Assembly: GCA_024654505.1 (NCBI GenBank)
Contig: JANLHN010000003.1
Span: forward strand, 167,037-231,036
Length of the DNA: 64,000 nucleotides
Origin: Nanobdellota archaeon
GTDB lineage: Archaea > Nanobdellota > Nanobdellia > Pacearchaeales > GW2011-AR1
Direction: 5' to 3'
The notes beneath the pieces are model-generated. The model did no database searches. It worked only from the letters and a program-made list of their open reading frames with translations, and had not been told where the DNA came from. Shown piece by piece: positions 3,831-29,897 of this stretch (position 1 is its first letter; each line of letters starts with the position of its first letter). Made by a program: the position numbers and the translations under genes.

Positions 3831-5416
3831 TCATACCCAGACATATTGCTGAGGGTGCCAGGTCTTCCTTGAGATTTTCTTGCTGCAATAACATCATCGA
3901 TTCGGAGAATCATTATTGCGACTTCGCTTGCAGAAGCTATTGCTTGTGTTTTGACTTTTAACGGCTCGATGATTCCTTTCATCATAGTATCTTCAATCTT
4001 CCCTGTGAAGAGGTTTAATCCTGCATTTCGATTATTTGCGTCATGACTTGCCCTTAGTTCTGTTAAAACGTCAATAGGGTCCATTCCTGCGTTTTCTGCA
4101 AGGGTTCTTGGGATAAACTCCATAGCCGAAGCAAATTCTTCAACAGCCAATCTTTCTCTTCCCCTGAGGGTATTTGCAAATTCTTTTAGTCTTTTACATA
4201 ATTCTATTTCAACCGCCCCCCCACCAGCAACAACTTTTGAATCTTCCATTGTAGATGCAACATCTCCCAAGGCATCACGAATGGCTCTTTCTACTTCGTC
4301 AATAACGTGGTCTGTTCCCCCACGGATTAGAATTGTTAGTGCTTTTGGATTTTTACAACCCATAATATATGTCATTCCCTCTCCACCCTCTTTTCTTTCC
4401 TCAACATATGCGGCAAACCCTAAATCTTCCTCCCTTAGTTCAGTTAATTTAGAAACCACTCTAGCTCCTGTGGCTTTTGAAAGGCTTTGCATATCTTTTT
4501 TTGAAACCCTTCTAACTACATAAATTCCTGCCCTTGCTAGATAAAATTGAACCAGCTCATCAATCCCTTTTTGAACAATTAGAACGTTTGCTCCAGAATT
4601 TTTTATTTTTTCTACTTTAGATTTAAGGAGGGAGTCTTCTTGATTCATGAAACTTTGTAATTGTTCTGGTGTGGAAATTGAGAGTCTTGTCTCTGTCTCG
4701 AGCCCTTTTATTTCTAGGGCCTCTTCTACAAGAGCAATTTTGGCATTTTCAACCCTTTTTGGCATTTCGAGATTAACTCTCTCGTTATCTAGAACAATTC
4801 CTTTTATTAATTCGGTATCTTCTAGAGATTTCCCTTTTTGTTTCTCAATCCTTATATCTTCTAAATCTACTTTCCCCTTTTCAGAGACCATCTTTACTGC
4901 TTCAACGATTATCTCGCTGAATTTTTCTCTTAAATACTCTGCCCCCTTTCCTGTCATTGCAGTTTGGGCGATTTTCATTAGTTCTTCTTCAGAATCTATC
5001 TCAACAGACAGCTCTTTTAGGATTATTTGTGCCTTTTCTTCAGCCCACCTATAGCCTCTAGTGATTATTGTAGGATGTATTCCTTGGTCAAGCAATTTTT
5101 CTGCATTCTCAAGGAACTTTCCTGCTAACATTACAGCGGTTGTTGTTCCATCCCCCACCTCTAAATCTTGGGTCTTTGCAATATCTACAATCATTTTTGC
5201 TGCAGGATGTTCAATATCCATCTCTTTGAGAATAGTTACCCCATCATTTGTGATTATAATGTTTCCCACCTTGTCAACCAACATTTTATCCATTCCTTTT
5301 GGACCCAAAGTTGTTTTTACTGTTTCAGCGACGACTCTTGCAGCCAGAATATTGTTCCTTTGTGCATCTCTGCCTAGTATCCGACTACCTTCATTAGAAG
5401 TTATGTTCTCGACCAT
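3827..5416 (-). CDS. ths: Thermosome subunit (group II chaperonin)
   Basis: [33 protein letters not shown] and [13 protein letters not shown] are canonical group II chaperonin motifs. The start was trimmed from 5524 to the MVENITS methionine. A TTATAAA box lies ~25 nt upstream of that ATG, consistent with a leaderless transcript. Confidence 0.9.
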
Positions 5417-9847: not shown

Positions 9848-10009
9848 TATTATAAAAAGGGATCGAACCGCGTCCGAAGACGCGGCCTGATACTCTTAAA
9901 AAATATAATGTGTTTTTAAACCTTGTGTTGAGAAAGATTAACCTAAAGATGTGAGGTGACGCACAAAAATAAAACGCCCCTCTAAAAGTTAAAATAATTT
10001 AAAGAAAAT

Positions 10010-10072
10010 TTACTTCTTTTTCTTCTTCACTACTTTTTTCTTTTTTACTGCTTTTTTCTTTTTTGCTGCCAT
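10010..10072 (-). CDS. Micro-ORF encoding a 20-aa lysine-rich peptide (MAAKKKKAVKKKKVVKKKKK)
   Basis: ATG is preceded by GGAGGTTGAAAA, a strong SD at ideal spacing. A second, similar micro-ORF lies 500 bp away. Confidence 0.25.
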   Translation of the reverse strand: MAAKKKKAVKKKKVVKKKKK

Positions 10073-10254
10073 TTTTCAACCTCCTTTTGTTTTAATTATT
10101 AGAATAATTATCACTTGTAATCAATGTATCTTTAATTTATAAACTTTGTTAAAAAAATAATTTAGAAAATATTTTATAAATAATGCAAAAAATTAATCTC
10201 CGTCGGTGAATTCTTAATTATCAAATTTGCCTAAATTATACACTAAATATTTTT

Positions 10255-10413
10255 TTATTTTTTTATTTTTCCTCTCCAAATTAAAAAAATTGTTGCAATT
10301 AAAAAAATTCCTGATCTAATAAACCAGAGAGAATTTGTTGTTAAAAATCCTATAACGGCAAAGATTAGTGAAATAATCATAAAGGCAATTGAAAGTCCCA
10401 TTTCTCTTTCCAT
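10255..10413 (-). CDS. Small membrane protein (52 aa, two hydrophobic segments)
   Basis: Hand-translated sequence MEREMGLSIAFMIISLIFAVIGFLTTNSLWFIRSGIFLIATIFLIWRGKIKK. It falls below the 60-aa cutoff of the ORF track. Confidence 0.3.
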   Translation of the reverse strand: MEREMGLSIAFMIISLIFAVIGFLTTNSLWFIRSGIFLIATIFLIWRGKIKK

Positions 10414-10534
10414 ATTTTTCTTAATGTGATTGATTATAAAAATTTAATGTTTTTAGATTAAATTGTGGAGAAGCGATAATAAATAAAAAATAAATGGTTC
10501 AAGGATGAGCTTGATAAGGTGGTAACAAGAGAGA

Positions 10535-10573
10535 TTACTTCTTCTTTTTCTTGGCCTTCTTTTTTGCTGGCAT
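10535..10573 (-). CDS. Micro-ORF encoding a 12-aa lysine-rich peptide (MPAKKKAKKKKK)
   Basis: ATG is preceded by GGAGGTGTTTAAA. It is paralogous in style to the 10010..10072 micro-ORF. Confidence 0.2.
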   Translation of the reverse strand: MPAKKKAKKKKK

Positions 10574-10743
10574 TTTAAACACCTCCAAAGTTTTTAAATA
10601 GGGTCGCAAAACCTTTATCATTTTAAGTATTAAAAGATTATAAATGTATGTTTTATTTTGGTGTTTGGAAAATTTGGATTGGTTTGGGTTATTACATACA
10701 TTTCAAGACAGCGACGGAGAATTTGTTTTTTTGTTTTTTGGAT

Positions 10744-10829
10744 AAATCCCCGGCCGGCTCACAATTGGTGTACTTCTGCTGAAGCAAATCGAAAGTTCGA
10801 TTCCGATATATTAGAATCCCCCCGGCCAG
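10744..10829. repeat. Imperfect direct repeat of the tRNA-Tyr 3' end region (AATCCCCGGCCGG at 10744 and AATCCCCCCGGCCAG at 10814), with an inverted T-loop-like fragment (AAGTTCGATTCCG) between the copies
   Basis: Same architecture as downstream of tRNA-Gly and tRNA-Val. Confidence 0.5.
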
Positions 10830-10887
10830 AATCGAACTGGCACATATCGGGCTACAGCCGAATGTTCTACCATTGAACTACGGAGGG
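10817..10887 (-). tRNA. tRNA-Tyr (anticodon GTA)
   Basis: Reverse-complement fold. Acceptor CCCTCCG/CGGGGGG (one GU pair), discriminator A. D-stem GTTC/GAAC. Anticodon loop CTGTAGC. T-arm GCCAG-TTCGATT-CTGGC. 71 nt. Confidence 0.75.
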
Positions 10888-10945
10888 TTTGTCACCTACG
10901 GAATTCTCATGAAACGGCTATGCCGTTACTTTGAACTACGAAGGG
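10888..10945 (-). repeat. 58-nt unit upstream of tRNA-Tyr. It consists of a copy of the tRNA 5' 15 nt (one mismatch) plus the conserved hairpin module
   Basis: On the minus strand the unit reads CCCTTCGTAGTTCAA + AGTAACGGC-ATA-GCCGTTTC + ATGAGAATTCCGTAGGTGACAAA, then the real tRNA 5' end CCCTCCGTAGTTCAA. The 22-nt core GAAACGGCTATGCCGTTACTT is identical to the one in Gly unit 2. Confidence 0.8.
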
Positions 10946-11021
10946 TTATAATTTAACCTAGAATAGGGGATTTTTAAGGGTTGTGGGTTAGATTATTAAA
11001 CCTACTTCTTCTTTCCTAATT

Positions 11022-11864
11022 ATGGTAAGAGTACGTTATAGCTTCGGTTCGAGACACACCGGACATATGGAGAATATTCAGAAGCAGAGGGTAAAATATC
11101 CTCGAGTGATGAAAGAAGTTATTGACATCTCGGAGATTGTTCTAGAGATTCTTGATGCACGTTATATAGATGAGACTAGGAATATTGATATTGAAGAAGA
11201 TTTGATTAAAAAGGGAAAGAAAATTATTTTTGTTTTAAATAAAGCAGATTTAGTTGATGTAAAAAAAATTGAAGCAGAACTTCCAAAAGATTTGAAGCCA
11301 TATGTTTTTGTTTCGGCTAAGACTAAACAAGGTTCTAGAGATTTAAGGGAGAGAATTAGAATTGAAGCTAAACGTGTTGAGTTGCCCGAGAACATGAAAA
11401 GGGTTCATGTAGGGATTATAGGCTACCCAAATGCTGGAAAGAGTTCTATAATTAACTTAGTTACTCGAAGGAGTGTTACTGGAATCTCTAAACAGGCGGG
11501 ATATACTAGAGGGATGCAAAAGGTTAGGATGACAGATAAGATATTAATATTAGACACTCCAGGAGTTATTCCGGACTCAAAATATTCTTCCTCGGCAAAG
11601 GCTGCTTCTTCTCAAGATGCAAAGGTTGGAGCAAGAACCTATAGTCATGTTAAAGATCCTGAAGATGTTATTAATTACTTAATGAAAGATTATAGCAAGA
11701 CAATTGAAAAATTTTATAAAATTGATGCTGAGGGTGATGTCGAGATTTTAATTGAAAAGTTGGGAAAGAAAATGAATTATCTAAAGAAAGGCGGACAGAT
11801 TGATTCGGATAGAACTGCTAGATTAATTTTGAAGGATTGGCAGGAAGGCAAAATAAGAATTTAG
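11022..11864 (+). CDS. Circularly permuted GTPase of the YlqF/RbgA (MMR1/HSR1) family, ribosome-biogenesis GTPase
   Basis: G4 (FVLNKADL) precedes G1 (GYPNAGKSSIIN), then G3 (DTPG), which is the permuted order. The N-terminal HTGHM...LDARYI matches the RbgA PGHM...DAR motif. Confidence 0.8.
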   Translation: MVRVRYSFGSRHTGHMENIQKQRVKYPRVMKEVIDISEIVLEILDARYIDETRNIDIEEDLIKKGKKIIFVLNKADLVDVKKIEAELPKDLKPYVFVSAKTKQGSRDLRERIRIEAKRVELPENMKRVHVGIIGYPNAGKSSIINLVTRRSVTGISKQAGYTRGMQKVRMTDKILILDTPGVIPDSKYSSSAKAASSQDAKVGARTYSHVKDPEDVINYLMKDYSKTIEKFYKIDAEGDVEILIEKLGKKMNYLKKGGQIDSDRTARLILKDWQEGKIRI

Positions 11865-22477: not shown

Positions 22478-23557
22478 ATGAAAAAATTCTTTGTTTTGGG
22501 TCGTAATCCTACACTCTCGCGTTTGGAAGTTTTATCTTTTTTGGAAGCTAGGAAGAGGGAGTATAAAGAAATTTTATTCGATGAGAATCTTTTGGTCTTG
22601 GAATTTCCTGGTGAGGAGAAGGTGAATGTTCAGGAGTTTGGAGGTGTTTTAAAAATTGGAGATATATTATTTGAGGGTGAAGAGAAAGATTTTAGAAATT
22701 ATTTAGATGGTGAAGAGATTATACCTTCAGATAAATTTTCTTATTCTATTTTTGGGAATGGAGACGAAGATTTAATTAAACAGAAGTTTAAATCTGAAAA
22801 GAAAAAGGCTGTATTAAGGCGTGGCCGTAATCGTATGAAAATGCAAGAGGGTTCTTTTTTGAATGTGGGAAATGCTGATTTTTCTTTGTTTTACTATAAA
22901 AAAAATGATATGGTCCTATTTGGTTTAGTTAATCAAGACTATAATTACGAGCCCGTTAAGGACCGTGATATGAACAAACCCGTTCGAAGAGAGGAATTGG
23001 CTATTTCCCCAAGATTGGCTAAAATTCTAATTAATCTTGCAGGTTCTAAACCAGGTTCTTTGCTTTTAGACCCCTTTTGTGGGATTGGAGGGATATTGCA
23101 GGAATCTTTAGTTAAGGGCATTAAGTGTTATGGTATAGACCACAATCAGGAGGCAATAAAGGATGCCGAGAAGAATCTTAAATGGTTATGTGGAAAGTAT
23201 AATATTAGGGGAGATTACCGGCTAGAAAATATTGATTCTCGTAAGGCCCCCGATCTACAGTTTGGTTCTATTGCAACAGAGACCCCCTTAGGGGTTGTTT
23301 TACGTAAGAAACCTAATGATAACCATGCCAAGAAGATAATCCTTGATTTTGAGGCTTTAATGATACCTATCCTTTTGAGACTTAAGAAAGTTAAGAAGCC
23401 GGGTGCTAAAATATCAATTACTTTTCCTGTGGTTAGGGGTTTCCATGTTAATGCCGGGAAGGTTGCCGGGAAGGTTGGATTAAGGATACTTAACGGACCT
23501 ATTTTAGAATCTCGTGAGGACCAGTTCATTTCTAGAGATATTGTAGTTTTTGTTTAG
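22478..23557 (+). CDS. SAM-dependent RNA methyltransferase (Trm11/Trm14/UPF0020-like, putative tRNA guanine-N2 methyltransferase)
   Basis: Motif I LLLDPFCGIGGILQES and downstream YGIDHNQEAIKDA (motif II region) match the UPF0020/Trm11 class. The N-terminal ~150 aa could be a THUMP-like domain. Confidence 0.55.
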   Translation: MKKFFVLGRNPTLSRLEVLSFLEARKREYKEILFDENLLVLEFPGEEKVNVQEFGGVLKIGDILFEGEEKDFRNYLDGEEIIPSDKFSYSIFGNGDEDLIKQKFKSEKKKAVLRRGRNRMKMQEGSFLNVGNADFSLFYYKKNDMVLFGLVNQDYNYEPVKDRDMNKPVRREELAISPRLAKILINLAGSKPGSLLLDPFCGIGGILQESLVKGIKCYGIDHNQEAIKDAEKNLKWLCGKYNIRGDYRLENIDSRKAPDLQFGSIATETPLGVVLRKKPNDNHAKKIILDFEALMIPILLRLKKVKKPGAKISITFPVVRGFHVNAGKVAGKVGLRILNGPILESREDQFISRDIVVFV

Positions 23558-23604: not shown

Positions 23605-24021
23605 ATGGAAAAAACACCTATTTCACAAGGAAATACCTGGAATACCTCAGGAGATATTGAAGCTATGGGGACTGGAGGAGTAGACTCTCTTAAAGAAGCT
23701 ATTGAGGAGGTAGATGAGTTAATTAGAAAGAGAGAAATTCTAAGTCAGAGGTTTCTTGCTGAGGGAGAAAAAATGAAGACAAAGATTAATAATTTCTTGT
23801 CTGAAAGTGCTCCTAAGGGAGATGATGATTCTGAATTTGCTCGTGAACGGGCAGAGCTTAGAAAAAAACAGATTGAAATTTCTGAGATGCAATTGAATGA
23901 AACTGTTGGTGCCTGGAGAGATATCGCCCTTTTGAAAAAGGAATTAAGAGATAGAACCAAGGAATTACATGAAAAAACTAGTAGGGCTGAAGCTCTTGGA
24001 AGGATTATGGAGGGAGAATGA
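23605..24021 (+). CDS. Coiled-coil hypothetical protein, translationally coupled (ATGA overlap) to the downstream ATPase
   Basis: 138 aa, highly charged and helical. Its stop overlaps the start of the 24018 ORF by 4 nt. Confidence 0.45.
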   Translation: MEKTPISQGNTWNTSGDIEAMGTGGVDSLKEAIEEVDELIRKREILSQRFLAEGEKMKTKINNFLSESAPKGDDDSEFARERAELRKKQIEISEMQLNETVGAWRDIALLKKELRDRTKELHEKTSRAEALGRIMEGE

Positions 24022-25925
24022 CATTTCAACACCCATTAACTGTTGAAGAAATTTGTAATAAACTTCGTCCTGTTTATGGAGATAAAGTAGATAAGATTTA
24101 TTTTCAGTATACCGTAGCAGAAAGTAAAGAAGAAAAGGAAGAAATATTCCATTTTTTGAATGCATTATATCAAAAGAACCTAAGTAAACTTCTTGACACT
24201 GGTGTTTTGTTAGAACCTCCTAGAGAAGAGATGATTGATGGAACTTATGAACTAGGGACGGTAAGTTATGCTAATAGGAGACTTTTTCCATTTAAATTGA
24301 GGGAAAAAGATTGGCCTAGGCATGTTTGTATTACTGGGATGTCGGGTTCTGGAAAAACGACTTTGGCTTTTAGTATTGTAGATGCTCTAAAGAAAAATGG
24401 TAAGCCTTTTTTGATTTTTGACTGGAAAAAATCTTTTAGGCCGTTGTTAAAAGAAGACCATTCTTTATTATGTTTTACTGTTGGAAATGATTTAGTTAGT
24501 AACTTGTTTAAAACAAATATAAATCAGCCACCAAGAGGGGTTGCTCCAAAAGAGTGGATTAATGTTTTGGCGGATTTATTGACTGAATGTTTCTACGCAT
24601 CTTTTGGTGTTCATAAAGTTATTTTGGAAACTCTTGATGAGGCATTTAAGGAATGGGGAATTTATAATGGATCTCTTAATTATCCTACCTGGAATCATAT
24701 TAAGTGGAGGTTAGAAGAAAAACTAAAGAAACAGACGGGTAGAGAAGGTGGTTGGTTAGAGTCTGCCCTAAGAATTGCTACAGTACTAACTTTCGGAGAA
24801 TTTGGAAAGACGGTTAATTATAAGGGAGAGAATAGTGTTTCCGTAGAGGACCTATTGAACCAAAGAGTAATTTTAGAACTTAATTCGTTAGGGAATATTG
24901 AAAAAACTTTCTTTTGTGATTTTGTTTTAATGTATATTTACAAATTGAAAAAAGTTACACAAACAGAAGTTAATCACAGTTTTGATCATGCAATTATTGT
25001 TGATGAGGCCCATAATATCTTTCTTAAAAGAGAGACTAATTTTGCTAATGAATCTGTAACTGATATGATTTATAGGGAAATGAGAGAGTATGGGACAAGT
25101 CTTATTTGTTTAGACCAACATATTTCTAAAATATCGGATACAGTTAAGGGAAATAGTGCTTGCCATATGGCTTTTCAACAGCAATTACCTGCAGATGTTT
25201 CAGACATTAGTGATTTGATGCAACTTTGGGAGAAAAAACATTACTTCTCTCAGCTACCTGTTGGAAGTGCGATTGTAAAACTTTCTGAAAGATATACAAA
25301 ACCCTTCTTAGTAGAGGTTCCATTGGCAAATGTTAGGAATTTTGATGTAAATGATGTAGAAGTAAGGAGTAGAATGAATGCAATGAGTTTGACTAAAGAT
25401 TTCGAGAAGAATATCGACGAGGAATTTAATGAAGAAATAATTCAACCAAGGCCTGTCTTTGAAGAATCTGAAAAAGTTATTAGTGATGAAGAAACAAAAC
25501 CAAGAAATATTGGAGATATTTTATATAATTTTGTTATTGGTTACTTAAATAAAGGTGTTGAACTCCATGAAGTTGAGAAGATTTTAGAAGAAAGTAAGTC
25601 TCAAGGTGGGTATACTTCTGAAGATATAATTAAGGTCATCAATCGTGTCTTTGAGGAACAAGGAAAAGTAAAGTTTAAAAAAGAGGAGTCCCCTAATAAT
25701 CTTGGCGATGGATTAAATCAAAATCCCGATAGGCAAGAATTCCTTGAATTTTTGCAAAAGAACCCGAACCATAATTTTAGTACAGTTGAACTGTACAAAC
25801 AAATTGGTCTTTCCCCTAGGAAAGGCACTAAAATAAAAAAGGAGCTCGAAGCCGAAGAGCTCATTCGGGTTGAAGAAGAAAAGAATGAGAAAGGTTGGAA
25901 GAAATATATCCGCCTCGCTCGTTAA
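24018..25925 (+). CDS. HerA/FtsK-superfamily P-loop ATPase (DUF87 'AAA-like' domain) with C-terminal winged-helix domain
   Basis: Walker A CITGMSGSGKTTLA. Walker B AIIVDEAHNIF. Domain order and length are typical of HerA/VirB4/TraC-like DUF87 ATPases. The C-terminus ELYKQIGLSPRKGTKIKKELEAEELI is HTH-like. Confidence 0.65.
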   Translation: MTFQHPLTVEEICNKLRPVYGDKVDKIYFQYTVAESKEEKEEIFHFLNALYQKNLSKLLDTGVLLEPPREEMIDGTYELGTVSYANRRLFPFKLREKDWPRHVCITGMSGSGKTTLAFSIVDALKKNGKPFLIFDWKKSFRPLLKEDHSLLCFTVGNDLVSNLFKTNINQPPRGVAPKEWINVLADLLTECFYASFGVHKVILETLDEAFKEWGIYNGSLNYPTWNHIKWRLEEKLKKQTGREGGWLESALRIATVLTFGEFGKTVNYKGENSVSVEDLLNQRVILELNSLGNIEKTFFCDFVLMYIYKLKKVTQTEVNHSFDHAIIVDEAHNIFLKRETNFANESVTDMIYREMREYGTSLICLDQHISKISDTVKGNSACHMAFQQQLPADVSDISDLMQLWEKKHYFSQLPVGSAIVKLSERYTKPFLVEVPLANVRNFDVNDVEVRSRMNAMSLTKDFEKNIDEEFNEEIIQPRPVFEESEKVISDEETKPRNIGDILYNFVIGYLNKGVELHEVEKILEESKSQGGYTSEDIIKVINRVFEEQGKVKFKKEESPNNLGDGLNQNPDRQEFLEFLQKNPNHNFSTVELYKQIGLSPRKGTKIKKELEAEELIRVEEEKNEKGWKKYIRLAR

Positions 25926-27200
25926 TCATACTTTCACACATCACGACATCCACACACAAAACCAGTAACGACATGAGCTTTACCGCCCATCTCAACACTC
26001 CAGAAACTCGTGGATAAGCAAGATACTTTCAAATGGAAACTTTTGAGAGAATCTATGTGCTAGTCGTGACTGTGTTTCTGAAACAAATGCGTCGGAATAT
26101 CTTAGAAATAAGTGTCTGACGTATGCTCTGATGGTGAAATACGTGTCTTAAGTCACTTAGCTTATACAAAGCGCTGGATGTCTCCTTGAGGGAGGGCTTC
26201 CAGAGAAACGGGGTGTTCCTGTAGTGGCTGTTTTTTGTCGCCCTGATGGTCGGGGTGATTCTTTTTATCGGCTGAGACGAAGGCGTCTCGGGAAGGAGTT
26301 CGCGTGATTAGGATGGGCAACGGACATAGGAGTTCGGAGAAGAAGGAGGGGAAGGTGAAGATAGTGAGGACACCTGCTCCCCCTTCTGATGAGGCACTGC
26401 TTCAGGAGCGGCTGCGCCAGATGGATGTGGCTTCCGGGAAGCTGCCCAGGATGGGGCGGAAGAAGGGGAACAACGGCTTCAACGGGGAGTCGAACGGCCA
26501 GCAGCTAGATGACCCGCTCCGTTCGATGATCCTCCCCAACCACCTCTAGAAGGGAGGGGTGATGGGACGGAAGAAGCAGTGCTATGGGAGAGAGGGAGTC
26601 TGTTTGACTCCTAATTGTCCCTACGCCCTGGGTTGTATCCAGATCTGGGGCAGAGACCGACTCCTTAAGAAGAGGGGAGTTGGGGTAGAACAAAGCGTGC
26701 CGAGGGGCTCGGTGCGTTCCAAGGGCCCGCAGGGCAAAGTGTCCCGGGAAAGAAGAATTGGAGGGAGGATAGTAAGTGAGCAGACCGATTTTCTCAACAC
26801 CATCTCAGATGATGGTGGGACTCCCAGAAGTTAGTGGGGGGAGGAAGGTCTCGGTGGACCGCGCCCTGGAAGTCCTGGGGTTGACGGCATCCACCTTCAG
26901 AGACAAGATACAGAGGGAGGAAGGTTTCGACATGGATAACCTCGTTGCTGGGGGGAAGAAGTTCTCTGCGAAGGGGGCGCCTCTGGCTGGGGGGGAATTC
27001 CTCCTCCGGGTCTTCATCGGAGGAAACATCGAGGCCAGAGTTCTCCTGGACCCTGAACGACAGAGGGTACTCTCAACTCAGGAAGTCCAGATGACTAGAG
27101 AGGGGGTAGTGGCCCTGTAAGAGGTCATGGGCTCCTAGACGGGACGATGCTGGGGGTGTGGGCTAGGGAGGAAGTTCTGCCTACACCCCCAGACAGGCTG
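25926..27200. other. GC-rich (~55%) compositional island with sharp boundaries. It contains 3 short overlapping ORFs in different frames and ends in a hairpin GGGGGTGTGGGC...GCCTACACCCCC
   Basis: Visible base-composition shift relative to the ~33% GC flanks. Candidate ORFs are 26304..26549, 26559..26834 and 26776..27120. Confidence 0.6.
26776..27120 (+). CDS. Possible excisionase/MerR-type HTH DNA-binding protein inside the GC-rich island
   Basis: VSVDRALEVLGLTASTFRDKIQREEGF resembles the excisionase-family helix-turn-helix. The reading frame overlaps the upstream ORF, which suggests possible frameshift decay. Confidence 0.3.
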   Translation: MSRPIFSTPSQMMVGLPEVSGGRKVSVDRALEVLGLTASTFRDKIQREEGFDMDNLVAGGKKFSAKGAPLAGGEFLLRVFIGGNIEARVLLDPERQRVLSTQEVQMTREGVVAL

Positions 27201-27446
27201 ATTTTTTTAGTAATAGGGTCAAGAAAGAAAGGAGAATCTCATGAGTAACAATCTTTGGACCACGTTTGTTTTTTTGTTTTTTTGTTTTTTTTTGCCTTTA
27301 TCTATATACTTTAATATATATGTTGAAGAATATAGGTTGAAAATTGTTTTTTGTTTGAGTTTTTGGGGCTGGCCGCCCCGAATAAAGAATTTGAAGTTTG
27401 TTGGAACCACAACAAACTTTATATAATCCTTGAGATAATCTTTGTT

Positions 27447-29897
27447 ATGGGTGATAAATATGTTCGGTGGTTGTCTTCTCTTTCTAAAAAAGACTTAAAC
27501 CTTGCTGGAGGAAAGGGTGCAAACTTGGGAGAGATGTATAATAATAAATTTCCTGTTCCACAAGCATTTGTTGTGACGACTGATGCCTTTTTTTATTTTC
27601 TTAAGGAAACAAAAATCAAGGATGAAATAAGGGCGTTGTTAAACCGAATTGATGTAGATGATTCGGATAAATTGGCAAAGATAGCTGAAGAAATTCGAGA
27701 AACTATCACTAATGCTAAAATGCCAGAAGTTTTAGAAAGAGAAATTATTGAAGCATATGACCATTTTAATGTTGATTTGGATGGTTTAAAGAGTTCTCCA
27801 GGGGCGCTTTCTATTTTGAGGTCTTCGAGAGAACCTGTTTTTGTTTCTGTGAGGTCTTCGGCAACAGCAGAGGATTTGGAGGGAGCAAGTTTTGCAGGAC
27901 AGCAAGAGAGTTTTATTAATGTTCGAGGAAATAAAGAATTAATTGAAAAGGTAAAACGTTGTCTCGCATCTATATTTACTGCTCGGTCTCTATTTTATCG
28001 TAAGAAGAAGGGCTTTGAAGATTTTGTAGGGATTGCAGCTGTCGTTCAGCGAATGGTTAACTCTGAAAAATCTGGTGTTATGTTTTCTAGACATCCTGTA
28101 AAAAATAATGACGAAATTTTAATTGAGGCTGTTTTTGGTCAGGGAGAGGGAATTGTTTCTGGACAAATTAAACCAGACCAACACACAGTTAGTAGGGATT
28201 TTAAGATTCTTGATGAAAAAATATCTGATAAAAAAATTGAAATTATCCGAACCTCTGGAGGACAAACAAAAACTAAAGAGTTAGGACCAGAGAAATCTAA
28301 GGGCCGTGTTTTGAAAACTTATGAGATTAAACAATTAGCAGAGTTTGCAATTAAACTTGAGAACCATTATAAGAAGCCGCAAGATATTGAGTTTGCTATT
28401 GAAAATGGAGAAATATATATTTTACAAACTCGCCCAATGACTGCACTGAAAAAAGATTATAAGGAAATGGAAGAACTTGAAGGTCATCTTTTAACGAGTG
28501 GTTTGGCTGCATCTCCAGGGGTTGCTTCTGGTCCTGTGAGAATTGTTAATTCTATGGAGGATTTGGGAAAGGTTCGTGATGGAGATATTCTAGTTACTAC
28601 AATGACTAATCCTGATATGGTTGTTACTATGCAAAAGGCTGCTGCGATTGTAACTAGTGAGGGAGGTGTTACTGCCCACGCCGCGATTGTGTCAAGAGAA
28701 ATGGGAATTCCTGCCGTCGTCGGAACAAGTGATGCGATGGATGTTTTGACTGATGGAATGGAAGTAACAGTTGATGGTTTTAATGGAAGAGTTTTTGCTG
28801 GAAAAGCTGAAAATAAAAGTGTGAAGATTCTTCCAATAGTGCATACAAAAACCAAAATTAAAGTTTTGGTCGATTTACCTCAATTTGCAGAGAGGGCAGC
28901 AAAGACCGAAGCTGATGGTGTTGGTTTGGTGAGGCTTGAAGGCTTAATTGCTAGCTCAGGTAAACATCCCTTGGCCTATGAAGGAGAAAACAAATTAGAA
29001 GAATATCAGGAAATGTTGAAAAAAGGGCTTCTTAAAATTGCAGAGGTCTTTATCGGAAAACCTATTTGGGTTAGAACATCAGATATACGAAGTGATGAGT
29101 ACTCAAATCTTGAAGGAGCACCTAAAGAAATTGAAAAAAATCCTATGCTTGGAGATCATGGAATTCATTTTTCGTTGAAACATCCAGAAATTTTAAAAGC
29201 CGAACTTAAGGCAATTAATGAACTTACGAAAAAAGGACATAAATTTGGTGTAATGTTTCCTCAGATAATCTCTGTCGAGGAAGTGAGGGCGGCACGAAAA
29301 ATATTTAATGAAGTTGGAATGGATAAAGTGGCTTTTGGTTTGATGATTGAAACTCCCGCTGCAACAATTTTAATTAAAGACCTTTGTGAAGAAGGAATTG
29401 ATTTTATTTCTTTTGGAACAAATGACTTGACGCAATATACTCTTGCTATTGATAGGGGAAATGAACATGTTCAAGATATTTATAATGAAATGAATTGGGC
29501 TGTTTTAAAACAAATTGCTAGGGTAATTAGAGAATGTAAAAAACAAAAGGTTGAAACTTCTATCTGTGGGCAAGCCGGTTCAAATAAGGAGATGGTTGAA
29601 TTTTTAGTTAAGCAGGGGATTGATTCCATTTCTGTTAATGCAGATGTTGCGAGAGAAATTTCTGAATTAGTTAGAGATTTAGAGGGTGGGACAAAGGTTG
29701 AAGAAAAAGTTGTTGAGAAGAGTGAAGAAAAAAAGGTTGAAGAAAAGAATATTCTTGATGAAGAAATTGTTGGTGAAAGAGAGATTGAGGAAAAAAATGA
29801 TTTAGGAACCGAAGAGGAATTAGTTGAGGCTGAGGAAGTTGAGCATCACCAAGGGCATTCAGATATTCATGTTGCTAAAGAAGACATTTTTGATTAA
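27447..29897 (+). CDS. ppsA: Phosphoenolpyruvate synthase (pyruvate, water dikinase)
   Basis: N-terminal KYVRWLSSLSKKDLNLAGGKGANLGEM. Phospho-His domain GGVTAHAAIVSREMGIPAVVG. PEP-utilising C-terminal TIM barrel including NDLTQYTLAIDRGN. The start was trimmed to MGDKYV at 27447. The C-terminus has an acidic low-complexity extension. Confidence 0.9.
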   Translation: MGDKYVRWLSSLSKKDLNLAGGKGANLGEMYNNKFPVPQAFVVTTDAFFYFLKETKIKDEIRALLNRIDVDDSDKLAKIAEEIRETITNAKMPEVLEREIIEAYDHFNVDLDGLKSSPGALSILRSSREPVFVSVRSSATAEDLEGASFAGQQESFINVRGNKELIEKVKRCLASIFTARSLFYRKKKGFEDFVGIAAVVQRMVNSEKSGVMFSRHPVKNNDEILIEAVFGQGEGIVSGQIKPDQHTVSRDFKILDEKISDKKIEIIRTSGGQTKTKELGPEKSKGRVLKTYEIKQLAEFAIKLENHYKKPQDIEFAIENGEIYILQTRPMTALKKDYKEMEELEGHLLTSGLAASPGVASGPVRIVNSMEDLGKVRDGDILVTTMTNPDMVVTMQKAAAIVTSEGGVTAHAAIVSREMGIPAVVGTSDAMDVLTDGMEVTVDGFNGRVFAGKAENKSVKILPIVHTKTKIKVLVDLPQFAERAAKTEADGVGLVRLEGLIASSGKHPLAYEGENKLEEYQEMLKKGLLKIAEVFIGKPIWVRTSDIRSDEYSNLEGAPKEIEKNPMLGDHGIHFSLKHPEILKAELKAINELTKKGHKFGVMFPQIISVEEVRAARKIFNEVGMDKVAFGLMIETPAATILIKDLCEEGIDFISFGTNDLTQYTLAIDRGNEHVQDIYNEMNWAVLKQIARVIRECKKQKVETSICGQAGSNKEMVEFLVKQGIDSISVNADVAREISELVRDLEGGTKVEEKVVEKSEEKKVEEKNILDEEIVGEREIEEKNDLGTEEELVEAEEVEHHQGHSDIHVAKEDIFD

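Follow-up and report, generated by a model that had tools for sequence, protein, structure and literature searches.

Location and composition of the GC-rich island

The DNA analysed here, hereafter called the window, is a stretch of 64,000 nucleotides from contig JANLHN010000003.1 of a metagenome-assembled genome (MAG) of a Nanobdellota archaeon (GenBank assembly GCA_024654505.1). It holds one GC-rich island, located between the gene of a HerA/FtsK-like P-loop ATPase and ppsA, which encodes phosphoenolpyruvate synthase. Upstream of the island, the genes encode, in this order, ribosomal protein L10e, a methyltransferase, a coiled-coil protein and the ATPase; downstream come ppsA, a nucleotidyltransferase gene and the GluRS gene. 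The flanking genes are housekeeping ones. The features of this region, together with copies of a hairpin element found at related loci, are collected in Table 1.

The presence of such an island, pointed out in a preliminary description of this DNA, is borne out by its composition. The GC content of the core (26181-27200) is 57.8%, whereas 607 1-kb windows taken elsewhere average 35.4% (sd 2.2, maximum 42.8), which corresponds to a z-score of about 10. It is the sole island of its kind in the 64 kb, whose average is 35% GC, and no second copy of it was found there. The core is also G-skewed over its whole length, with a GC skew of +0.14 to +0.34. Maximum-likelihood change points of the GC content fall at 26171 and 27201. 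The second agrees with the right edge that had been proposed near 27200. The composition had also been described as changing at the stop codon of the ATPase gene, but this is not the case: the segment 25926-26170, between the stop codon and the core, has a GC content of just 40-41%, and the core starts about 245 nt 3' of the ATPase stop (25925). Since a box conserved in the clade, CCAGAAACTCGTGGATAA, is retained at 26000-26017, host-type sequence runs past 26017. The true left junction of the foreign segment is therefore located between about 26085 and 26171, and not at 25926.

Table 1. Features of the ATPase-ppsA region of the window and copies of the hairpin element at related loci (designated by L numbers)
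Feature	Position	Strand	Basis or remark
Methyltransferase	22478-23557		weak match to mad2, 1.6e-12 (PADLOC)
Coiled-coil protein, 138 aa	23605-24021		upstream of the ATPase
HerA/FtsK-like P-loop ATPase, 635 aa; anchors the slot on the left, outside the insert	24018..25925	+	Pfam DUF87 9e-9, Zot 1.5e-7
Clade-conserved box CCAGAAACTCGTGGATAA	26000..26017	+	pattern match
Nested hairpin at the position of the relatives' hairpin element, sequence without recognisable homology	26001..26080	+	-26.1 kcal/mol, z = -3.0
GC-rich, G-skewed core, presumed foreign segment	26171..27201	+	change points, GC contrast
Terminator-like hairpin GTCGCCCTGATGGTCGGGGTGAT then TCTTTTTATC, near the 5' end of the core	26237..26269	+	terminator scan
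8-bp GC hairpin CUGAGACG-AAGG-CGUCUCGG, just 5' of the AAGGAG motif of ORF1	26272..26291	+	folding
ORF1, 81 aa from GTG; orphan protein-coding gene	26304..26549	+	codon periodicity
TAG stop between ORF1 and in-frame ORF2	26547..26549	+	ORF map
ORF2, 91 aa; probable hairpin-rich spacer or decayed sequence	26559..26834	+	flat codon-position GC, no periodicity
ORF3, 114 aa from GTG	26776..27120	+	codon periodicity, single-sequence AlphaFold model
Terminal GC hairpin GGGGGTGTGGGC...GCCTACACCCCC + T7	27148..27208	+	stem 27148-27195, T7 27202-27208
ppsA (phosphoenolpyruvate synthase); anchors the slot on the right	27447..29897	+	orthologues 65-77% identical
Hairpin element copies	L001 10056-10121; L002 3843-3908; L003 7808-7873; L005 9981-10045	+	covariance model
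Hairpin element copies (about 14 more loci in addition)	L006 9981-10047; L009 10043-10109; L014 12862-12928; L019 9959-10023	+	covariance model

Coding signal of the open reading frames

Three short open reading frames (ORFs) are found in the island, as stated in the preliminary description, which took them to overlap one another in different frames. Only ORF2 and ORF3 actually overlap, with ORF3 in frame +1; ORF1 and ORF2 share the same frame and are separated by a single TAG codon and 9 nt. The length of these ORFs is in itself no evidence of coding, as ORFs of about 100 codons are estimated from base frequencies to arise by chance at the composition of the island. A frame-resolved scan of codon periodicity is more telling. 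It revealed two periodic blocks, one in frame 0 at about 26290-26650, with a GC content at third codon positions (GC3) reaching 0.87, and one in frame 1 at about 26770-27190. No periodicity is seen between them at 26590-26830, a region covering most of ORF2, and about 230 nt separate the coding blocks of ORF1 and ORF3. Period-3 chi-square tests gave p-values from 4e-4 down to below 1e-4 across ORF1 (26290-26589), and for ORF3 of 0.004-0.013 in 180-nt windows (26830-27129) and 5e-4 in a 300-nt window.

The GC content at codon positions 1/2/3 is 0.60/0.40/0.78 for ORF1 and 0.63/0.43/0.66 for ORF3. Both follow the order GC3 > GC1 > GC2, which is the universal coding pattern expected of a GC-rich donor. 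The corresponding values are 0.45/0.30/0.26 for the flanking ATPase gene and 0.52/0.33/0.24 for ppsA, so that the codon usage of both ORFs, with GC3 values of 0.78 and 0.66 against 0.26 and 0.24, is foreign to this genome. By contrast, ORF2 has a flat profile (0.53/0.52/0.59). Structure prediction separates the ORFs in the same way. The AlphaFold model of ORF2 has a mean predicted local distance difference test (pLDDT) score of 53 and a predicted template modelling (pTM) score of 0.21, whereas the single-sequence model of ORF3 reaches a pLDDT of 67 overall, 74-78 over residues 31-100, and a pTM of 0.55. With fair confidence, the ORF3 product is predicted to consist of three helices followed by a beta-sheet, while that of ORF1 is basic and probably largely disordered. 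As periodicity, donor-type GC3 and the foldability of ORF3 contrast with the properties of ORF2, the sequence evidence indicates that ORF1 and ORF3 are protein-coding genes, now or until very recently, and that ORF2 probably is not one. The latter is probably a non-coding, hairpin-rich spacer or decayed sequence.

The GenBank annotation draws the same line: ORF2 is not annotated, whereas on the 369,652-bp contig of 'MAG: archaeon' both ORF1 (NUV97_00285) and ORF3 (NUV97_00290) are listed as hypothetical proteins, the former with 78 aa from the ATG at 26313 (MCR4323614 / MCR4284466) and the latter with 103 aa from the ATG at 26809 (MCR4323615 / MCR4284467). The arrangement of the ORFs had suggested a frameshifted foreign gene. 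This finds no support, as the coding signal is restricted to ORF1 and ORF3, an aperiodic gap of about 230 nt lies between them and none of the pieces matches a known family. A different kind of lesion is possible, namely that ORF1, the TAG codon and ORF2 represent a once-longer gene cut by a nonsense mutation, since the frame-0 periodicity weakens only after about 26650; past the TAG codon (26530-26709), it is statistically weak (p = 0.14).

Hairpins and expression signals

The GC hairpin with which the island had been said to end was found again by folding, with a stability of -34.7 kcal/mol for 27148-27195 (z = -4.9 against shuffles), and was also detected as an inverted repeat. With the run of seven T residues that follows, it corresponds to the definition of an intrinsic terminator, i.e. 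a GC-rich stem and then a T run. It may thus be viewed as a predicted terminator of bacterial style that would mark the right end of the insert. Other hairpins are located near the 5' end of the core (Table 1; folding of 26255-26300, -16.1 kcal/mol, z = -2.2) and in the ORF2 region, at 26594-26612 (z = -3.25), 26625-26651, 26694-26718 and 26798-26817. The minimum free energy (MFE) of the whole core is lower than that of dinucleotide shuffles on both strands (z = -3.66 on the plus and -3.41 on the minus strand, with 20 shuffles each). Because the excess is equal on the two strands, it points to local palindromes at the DNA level rather than to a strand-specific RNA fold. No G-quadruplex motif was found in the island. 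A search of Rfam 15 at the gathering threshold returned four tRNAs only for the whole window, and nothing relevant for 25800-27500 at E <= 10 (best E >= 0.33). A T-rich tract, GTTTGTTTTTTTGTTTTTTTGTTTTTTTTTGCC, is present at 27264-27296, between the terminator of the island and the ppsA promoter. It resembles a typical archaeal oligo-T termination signal, and could possibly be the original terminator of the slot.

The expression signals of the island also differ from those of its host. Most of the host genes carry TATA boxes ending about 25 nt before the ATG, and a Shine-Dalgarno (SD)-like 4-mer lies upstream of only 8 out of 39 long ORFs, which implies that host mRNAs are mostly leaderless. 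The mRNA of ppsA is likewise predicted to be leaderless because of a TATA-like box at about 27413-27424. SD-like motifs of the host are mainly found before operon-internal genes, such as the GGAGG before the ATPase gene at 24018. In the island, by contrast, the ORFs are located behind GGAGG-type motifs, with an SD-like AAGGAG before ORF1, and a hairpin-type terminator is present.

Homology searches

No relative of the island could be identified. Among 5.8 billion proteins, ORF1, ORF2 and ORF3 retrieved nothing but their own GenBank entries, and they had no match in Pfam, NCBIfam, PHROGs (E <= 1) or PADLOC. An exhaustive HMMER search of ORF3 against 1.84 billion cluster representatives returned ORF3 itself and one immunoglobulin (Ig)-repeat protein. 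The latter (E = 7.8e-4) was rejected as a homologue, its score being the sum of four weak repeat matches. Scans of IMG/VR and JGI metagenomes with ORF1 and ORF3 gave nothing, nor did blastn in distant mode of the island DNA against phages and plasmids, or tblastn against plasmids of ORF3 and of the ORF1-Q-ORF2 read-through product. A Foldseek search with the ORF3 model gave no significant neighbour in either PDB or BFVD, and none of the matches was an excisionase. One of the ORFs had been credited with an excisionase-type helix-turn-helix; this assignment found no support in Pfam, NCBIfam, PHROGs, HMMER or fold searches, and what is left of it is the helical N-terminal half of ORF3.

The ATPase-ppsA slot in related archaea

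The phyletic pattern of the island was assessed on a set of 131 loci harboring orthologues of the ATPase (45-71% identity), comprising 51 genome and 80 metagenome loci. Almost every genome locus bears the label Pacearchaeota, Woesearchaeota or Nanoarchaeota. The gene of the coiled-coil protein precedes that of the ATPase in nearly all 51 of them, and the methyltransferase gene is present in many. In 13 of the 51, a ppsA orthologue (65-77% identity) is located 3' of the ATPase gene, and the spacer between the two varies from 385 nt (L014) and 762 nt (L040) up to 4816 nt (L019). In none of the 131 loci was a sequence similar to the island found, and the situation envisaged as an objection to a recent acquisition, i.e. 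an island of similar GC content in all relatives, is thus not encountered. L014 and L040 have no island, and their spacers contain just a small reverse-strand winged helix-turn-helix (wHTH) gene. As this small gene precedes ppsA in some relatives and is absent from several lineages, it is uninformative on whether the island replaced it.

The cargo of the slot is unrelated between lineages. A gene for bacterial CsrA (PF02599, 4e-23) occupies positions 9816-10100 of L020, with 55% GC in a 40% GC genome, and is also found in L058 and L059. The slot of L019 carries a gene for FliS (PF02561, 1e-31; 10139-10462), three tRNA genes (10721-10791, 11030-11100 and 11435-11504) and small ORFs, with 46% GC in a 38% GC genome. 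In bacteria, CsrA and FliS serve the flagellar system as regulators or chaperones, and their presence in two different DPANN archaeal MAGs looks like cross-domain transfer. Other loci hold unrelated signal-peptide or membrane ORFs.

Two further loci carry islands reminiscent of that of the window. In L005, which belongs to a Pacearchaeota MAG of another study (L128 being the same contig), a G-rich island of about 1.2 kb (10100-11310, 48-56% GC) is located directly before ppsA, with the same strand bias. It ends with a hairpin followed by T5 (-32 kcal/mol, z = -5.0), contains an internal hairpin at 10415-10483 (-44.6 kcal/mol, z = -4.6) and is enriched in AAGGA / GAAAGG motifs (14 observed for 4.4 expected, z = 5.1). 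Compared with the island of the window, that of L005 may be more like an RNA. In the metagenome locus L073, a G-rich segment with 48-55% GC extends 3' of the ATPase gene up to the contig end (4990-5627) and includes at least two units made of a GC hairpin and T5 (about 5063-5112 and 5168-5245). No homology between the island of the window and those of L005 and L073 was detected by blastn, tblastx, blastp or MAFFT. The ppsA product of L005 is 65% identical to that of the window, against 76-77% for L010, L018 and L019. Since L005 is not the closest relative of the window and the islands are non-homologous, the acquisitions appear to be independent, and independent acquisitions into one flexible slot would be the simplest reading of these comparisons.

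One locus of this set, L007 (also L065), is labelled 'Desulfobulbaceae bacterium', yet it shows the DPANN-type module, 67% ATPase identity and the hairpin element described below; it is probably a mis-binned archaeal contig. With its true bacterial homologues (L048-L051), the ATPase shares only 33-37% identity. The CsrA gene of L020 had also prompted a test of the island as a CsrB/RsmZ-type sponge RNA. This candidate was rejected, as GGA (z = -0.55), AGGA (z = 0.13) and GGAGG (z = 0.29) are not enriched against dinucleotide-preserving shuffles, the enrichment of GGA motifs against mononucleotide shuffles being a compositional artefact.

A conserved hairpin element at the edge of the slot

An AT-rich nested hairpin of about 60 nt is present on the plus strand 50-250 nt after the ATPase stop codon at about 20 distinct loci. 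Its core reads AATACCT-CRYGRAAA...TTTCRYG...AGGTATT, and a covariance model (R1) recovers 22 copies at E < 0.01, all of them on the plus strand. Pairing is seen in 85.8% of the cells of the alignment, whereas it drops to 25-57% if the 3' partners are slid, and both sides have changed in 9 of the 15 pairs. The score for covariation reaches 0.263, compared with 0.142 for shuffles (0 of 500 reach 0.263) and at most 0.083 for slid controls, although the alignment used for it was fitted to the covariance model itself. The element is not in Rfam. In L005 and L019, foreign cargo begins at most about 100 nt after it, and in L014 it is located 3' of ppsA and is followed by variable signal-peptide ORFs. 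It could be a 3'-UTR (untranslated region) structure, a small RNA or a recombination or boundary site.

The window gave no match to this element with either the nhmmer profile or the covariance model R1, and only the box upstream of it is kept; at the position of the element, a nested hairpin is predicted from a different sequence (Table 1). The pattern of the box occurs once in the window for 0 expected in 100 shuffles, a test that is partly circular because the pattern was derived after the match had been seen. Among the loci, no more than three possess the box (L001, L002 and L014), each time immediately 5' to the hairpin element.

Origin of the island

The core of the island is probably recent, unameliorated foreign DNA, acquired by horizontal transfer in a flexible slot that spans the clade and holding a mini-operon of two orphan genes. 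The preliminary description had mentioned a recent horizontal acquisition or a mobile-element fragment, and this proposal is favoured. The observations behind it are the break in composition, the codon usage of ORF1 and ORF3, which is of donor type (GC3 of 0.78 and 0.66, against 0.25 in the host), the lack of the island in the slots of most relatives, and the variability and foreign content of these slots, including the CsrA and FliS cargo. The ORFs themselves are orphans. In such a scenario, a segment of about 1.03-1.1 kb (about 26171-27201) would have been taken up recently from a donor of higher GC content, probably of bacterial type or a mobile element. It would have entered a slot bordered on the left by the methyltransferase, coiled-coil protein and ATPase module with its short downstream element, and on the right by ppsA, a slot shared across the Pacearchaeota/Woesearchaeota clade. 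The insert would form a small operon, with a 5' leader carrying two hairpins, ORF1, the hairpin-rich spacer of about 230 nt, ORF3 and the terminator. Both genes may still be expressed, either from a TATA-like sequence, TTATACAA, at 26162-26169 or by read-through from the ATPase gene, and translated by means of the GGAGG-type motif upstream of each, while the terminal hairpin and T7 would stop the transcript and insulate the ppsA promoter. Rather than a set of adaptive genes, the fragment would be what is left of a mobile element or virus. As a best guess, made with low confidence, the products of ORF1 and ORF3 might be small proteins by which a mobile element binds nucleic acids or exerts regulation.

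Several points weigh against a horizontal acquisition. No donor or homologue of any part of the island was found in any of the collections searched, so that composition and phyletic pattern alone carry the case for a foreign origin. No convincing flanking direct repeat is present at the borders, no tRNA gene is located within 6 kb and no attC site was found at the island; no integrase was seen among its neighbours, in the course of an analysis in which no integrase search spanned the whole 64 kb. The analogous island of L005 displays only weak coding periodicity. Furthermore, the GC content of the island equals that of the tRNAs of this genome (51-60%), and its fold stability (z = -3.7) would fit a structured RNA as well. 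Lastly, a repeated motif, GGGAGGAAG(G/T)TYTC, occurs in different reading frames, a feature of the nucleotide level that coding does not explain.

Part of these points would be accounted for if the island were a native structured non-coding RNA gene of about 1 kb, GC-rich for the sake of stable helices like tRNAs and rRNAs, in which the ORFs are incidental. Its 56-58% GC, the MFE of the plus strand, the strong local hairpins and the terminator-like end would all be expected of such a gene, as would the motif repeated in differing frames, and stop-free stretches of 80-114 codons are estimated to occur by chance at this composition. The islands of L005 and L073, which are G-rich and hairpin-rich, occupy the same place and have a weak coding signal, also go in this direction. 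However, a period-3 signal that is specific to a frame, with its high GC3, extends over about two thirds of the core and is not produced by RNA structure. The fold excess is equal on the minus strand (z = -3.4), no Rfam match was obtained for the region even at E <= 10, and ORF3 gives a fairly confident protein model. As the three islands are unalignable, no covariation is demonstrable between them. A native RNA gene is on these grounds distinctly unlikely. Somewhat more weight is given to decay, although it too is considered unlikely. The island would then consist of one or several remnants of pseudogenised foreign genes, ORF1-TAG-ORF2 having once been one gene, without present expression or function. 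This is a sub-variant of the favoured acquisition, from which it differs on present function only. The frame shared across a single TAG, the frame-0 periodicity that fades only at about 26650, the stretch 26590-26830 devoid of any periodicity and the lack of homologues that would signal purifying selection all fit decay; DNA of no use is not expected to persist in small-genome DPANN lineages, in keeping with an arrival in the very recent past. Conversely, ORF1 and ORF3 have intact reading frames with SD-like motifs, the terminator is strong and a fold is predicted for ORF3. Two GenBank records also give an identical sequence and, as mentioned above, the periodicity after the TAG is weak.

Two other explanations would place the origin of the segment in the assembly process or in an integron. 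The preliminary description had raised the possibility of a chimera. The assembler would in that case have joined into the contig some 1 kb of DNA belonging to a GC-rich organism. The edges of the island are indeed very sharp, no homologue is known from any collection searched and the source is a MAG. Nevertheless, the order and orientation of the ATPase gene and ppsA are those of 13 related genomes and, as both flanks are syntenic with relatives, a chimera would need two precise junctions within one intergenic region. Inserts comparable in size and composition are found at this position in L005/L128 and L073, which come from unrelated assemblies made in other studies. A well-formed terminator closes the island on the right, with AT-rich promoter DNA of host type beyond it, and the ORF1-ORF3 pair is represented by two sets of consecutive GenBank accessions, although these records may not be independent assemblies. 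A chimera is accordingly considered very improbable. The case is slimmer still for an integron gene cassette or a cluster of attC sites lacking an integron integrase (CALIN), in which an integron integrase would have captured small promoterless ORFs with an attC hairpin. This explanation would suit the orphan ORFs of small size, the foreign composition, the imperfect palindrome at the end of the insert and the bacterial cargo that relatives carry in the same slot, and archaeal integrons are mostly CALINs and have been found in GTDB Nanoarchaeota (Ghaly et al. 2022, PMC9668308). But a consensus scan of 25926-27260 found no GTTRRRY or RYYYAAC box on either strand, and a scan for R''/R' boxes with complementary arms over the 1.52 Mb of all loci and the window yielded one candidate (L075), with none in the slots. 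The terminal hairpin of 48 nt followed by T7 is a better fit to a terminator than to attC. It is also the single hairpin of this kind, whereas two attC sites are the minimum for a CALIN, and the genes next to the island are the ATPase gene and ppsA.

Comparison with known systems

With genomic islets inserted at hotspots, the island shares a sharp compositional break, foreign codon usage and a patchy presence in relatives, as well as the use of one slot by a different, unrelated cargo in each genome, including genes of another domain of life (CsrA and FliS) and tRNAs. It differs from them by its very small size (about 1 kb and two ORFs), by a cargo that is entirely orphan and has no nameable donor, and by the lack of repeats or a tRNA at its borders and of an integrase among the neighbours inspected. 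The island itself would be one more small horizontally acquired islet, and a fairly ordinary one.

GC-rich composition has served as a signal to find non-coding RNAs in AT-rich archaea. The island resembles GC-rich structural RNA genes in its tRNA-like GC content, its excess of stable hairpins, its G-rich strand and its terminator-like 3' end; codon periodicity over two thirds of the core, a fold excess without strand specificity and the lack of an Rfam family set it apart from them.

Defence loci typically adjoin variable cargo. The methyltransferase and the ATPase of the window are similar to mad2 (1.6e-12) and mad8 (2.7e-13) of the anti-phage system MADS, both matches being weak. MADS is however an 8-gene operon (bioRxiv 10.1101/2023.03.30.534895), whereas only three genes are present at the window locus, where they form a core syntenic module beside ribosomal protein L10e. 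In addition, the coiled-coil/ATPase pair recurs across the DPANN clade, and the ORFs of the island match no PADLOC model.

Integron cassettes and CALINs of Archaea, a known route of bacterial genes into archaea, share with the island small ORFans of foreign composition followed by a hairpin, and they occur in the same phylum (PMC9668308). The island differs from them in having no attC R''/R' boxes in the consensus scan and a single, terminator-like hairpin.

The variable slot with its cross-domain cargo and covarying hairpin is of more interest than the island itself. Placed beside a conserved ATPase module, the slot offers a comparable locus at which to follow the uptake and loss of foreign DNA, including bacterial DNA, in ultra-small, host-dependent archaea, and the hairpin at its edge is an uncatalogued structured element. 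A far-reaching idea would be that the methyltransferase, coiled-coil and HerA/FtsK-like ATPase module, together with the covarying hairpin, forms a site-specific platform for the repeated capture of foreign DNA by Pace-/Woesearchaeota, with the hairpin acting as recombination or boundary site. If so, the mini-operon of the window, the island of L005, csrA, fliS and the tRNAs would all be captured cargo, and the platform would constitute a gene-capture system distinct from integrons. This is put forward as a speculation that we regard as improbable.

Flanking genes and minor observations

Besides the Pfam matches given in Table 1, the ATPase has weak matches to NCBIfam CedD and to the PADLOC mad8 model cited above, and it carries a C-terminal winged helix. 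Weak matches to large-terminase profiles are also seen for the three-gene module. A prophage or island anchored on the tRNA-Val gene at 19.5 kb was also envisaged for this side of the window, and was rejected, as the genes between tRNA-Val and the GC-rich island are housekeeping genes. At the other extreme of composition, the lowest GC content of the window (21.6%) is found at 10001-10500, a segment that adjoins the tRNA-Tyr gene (10817-10887).

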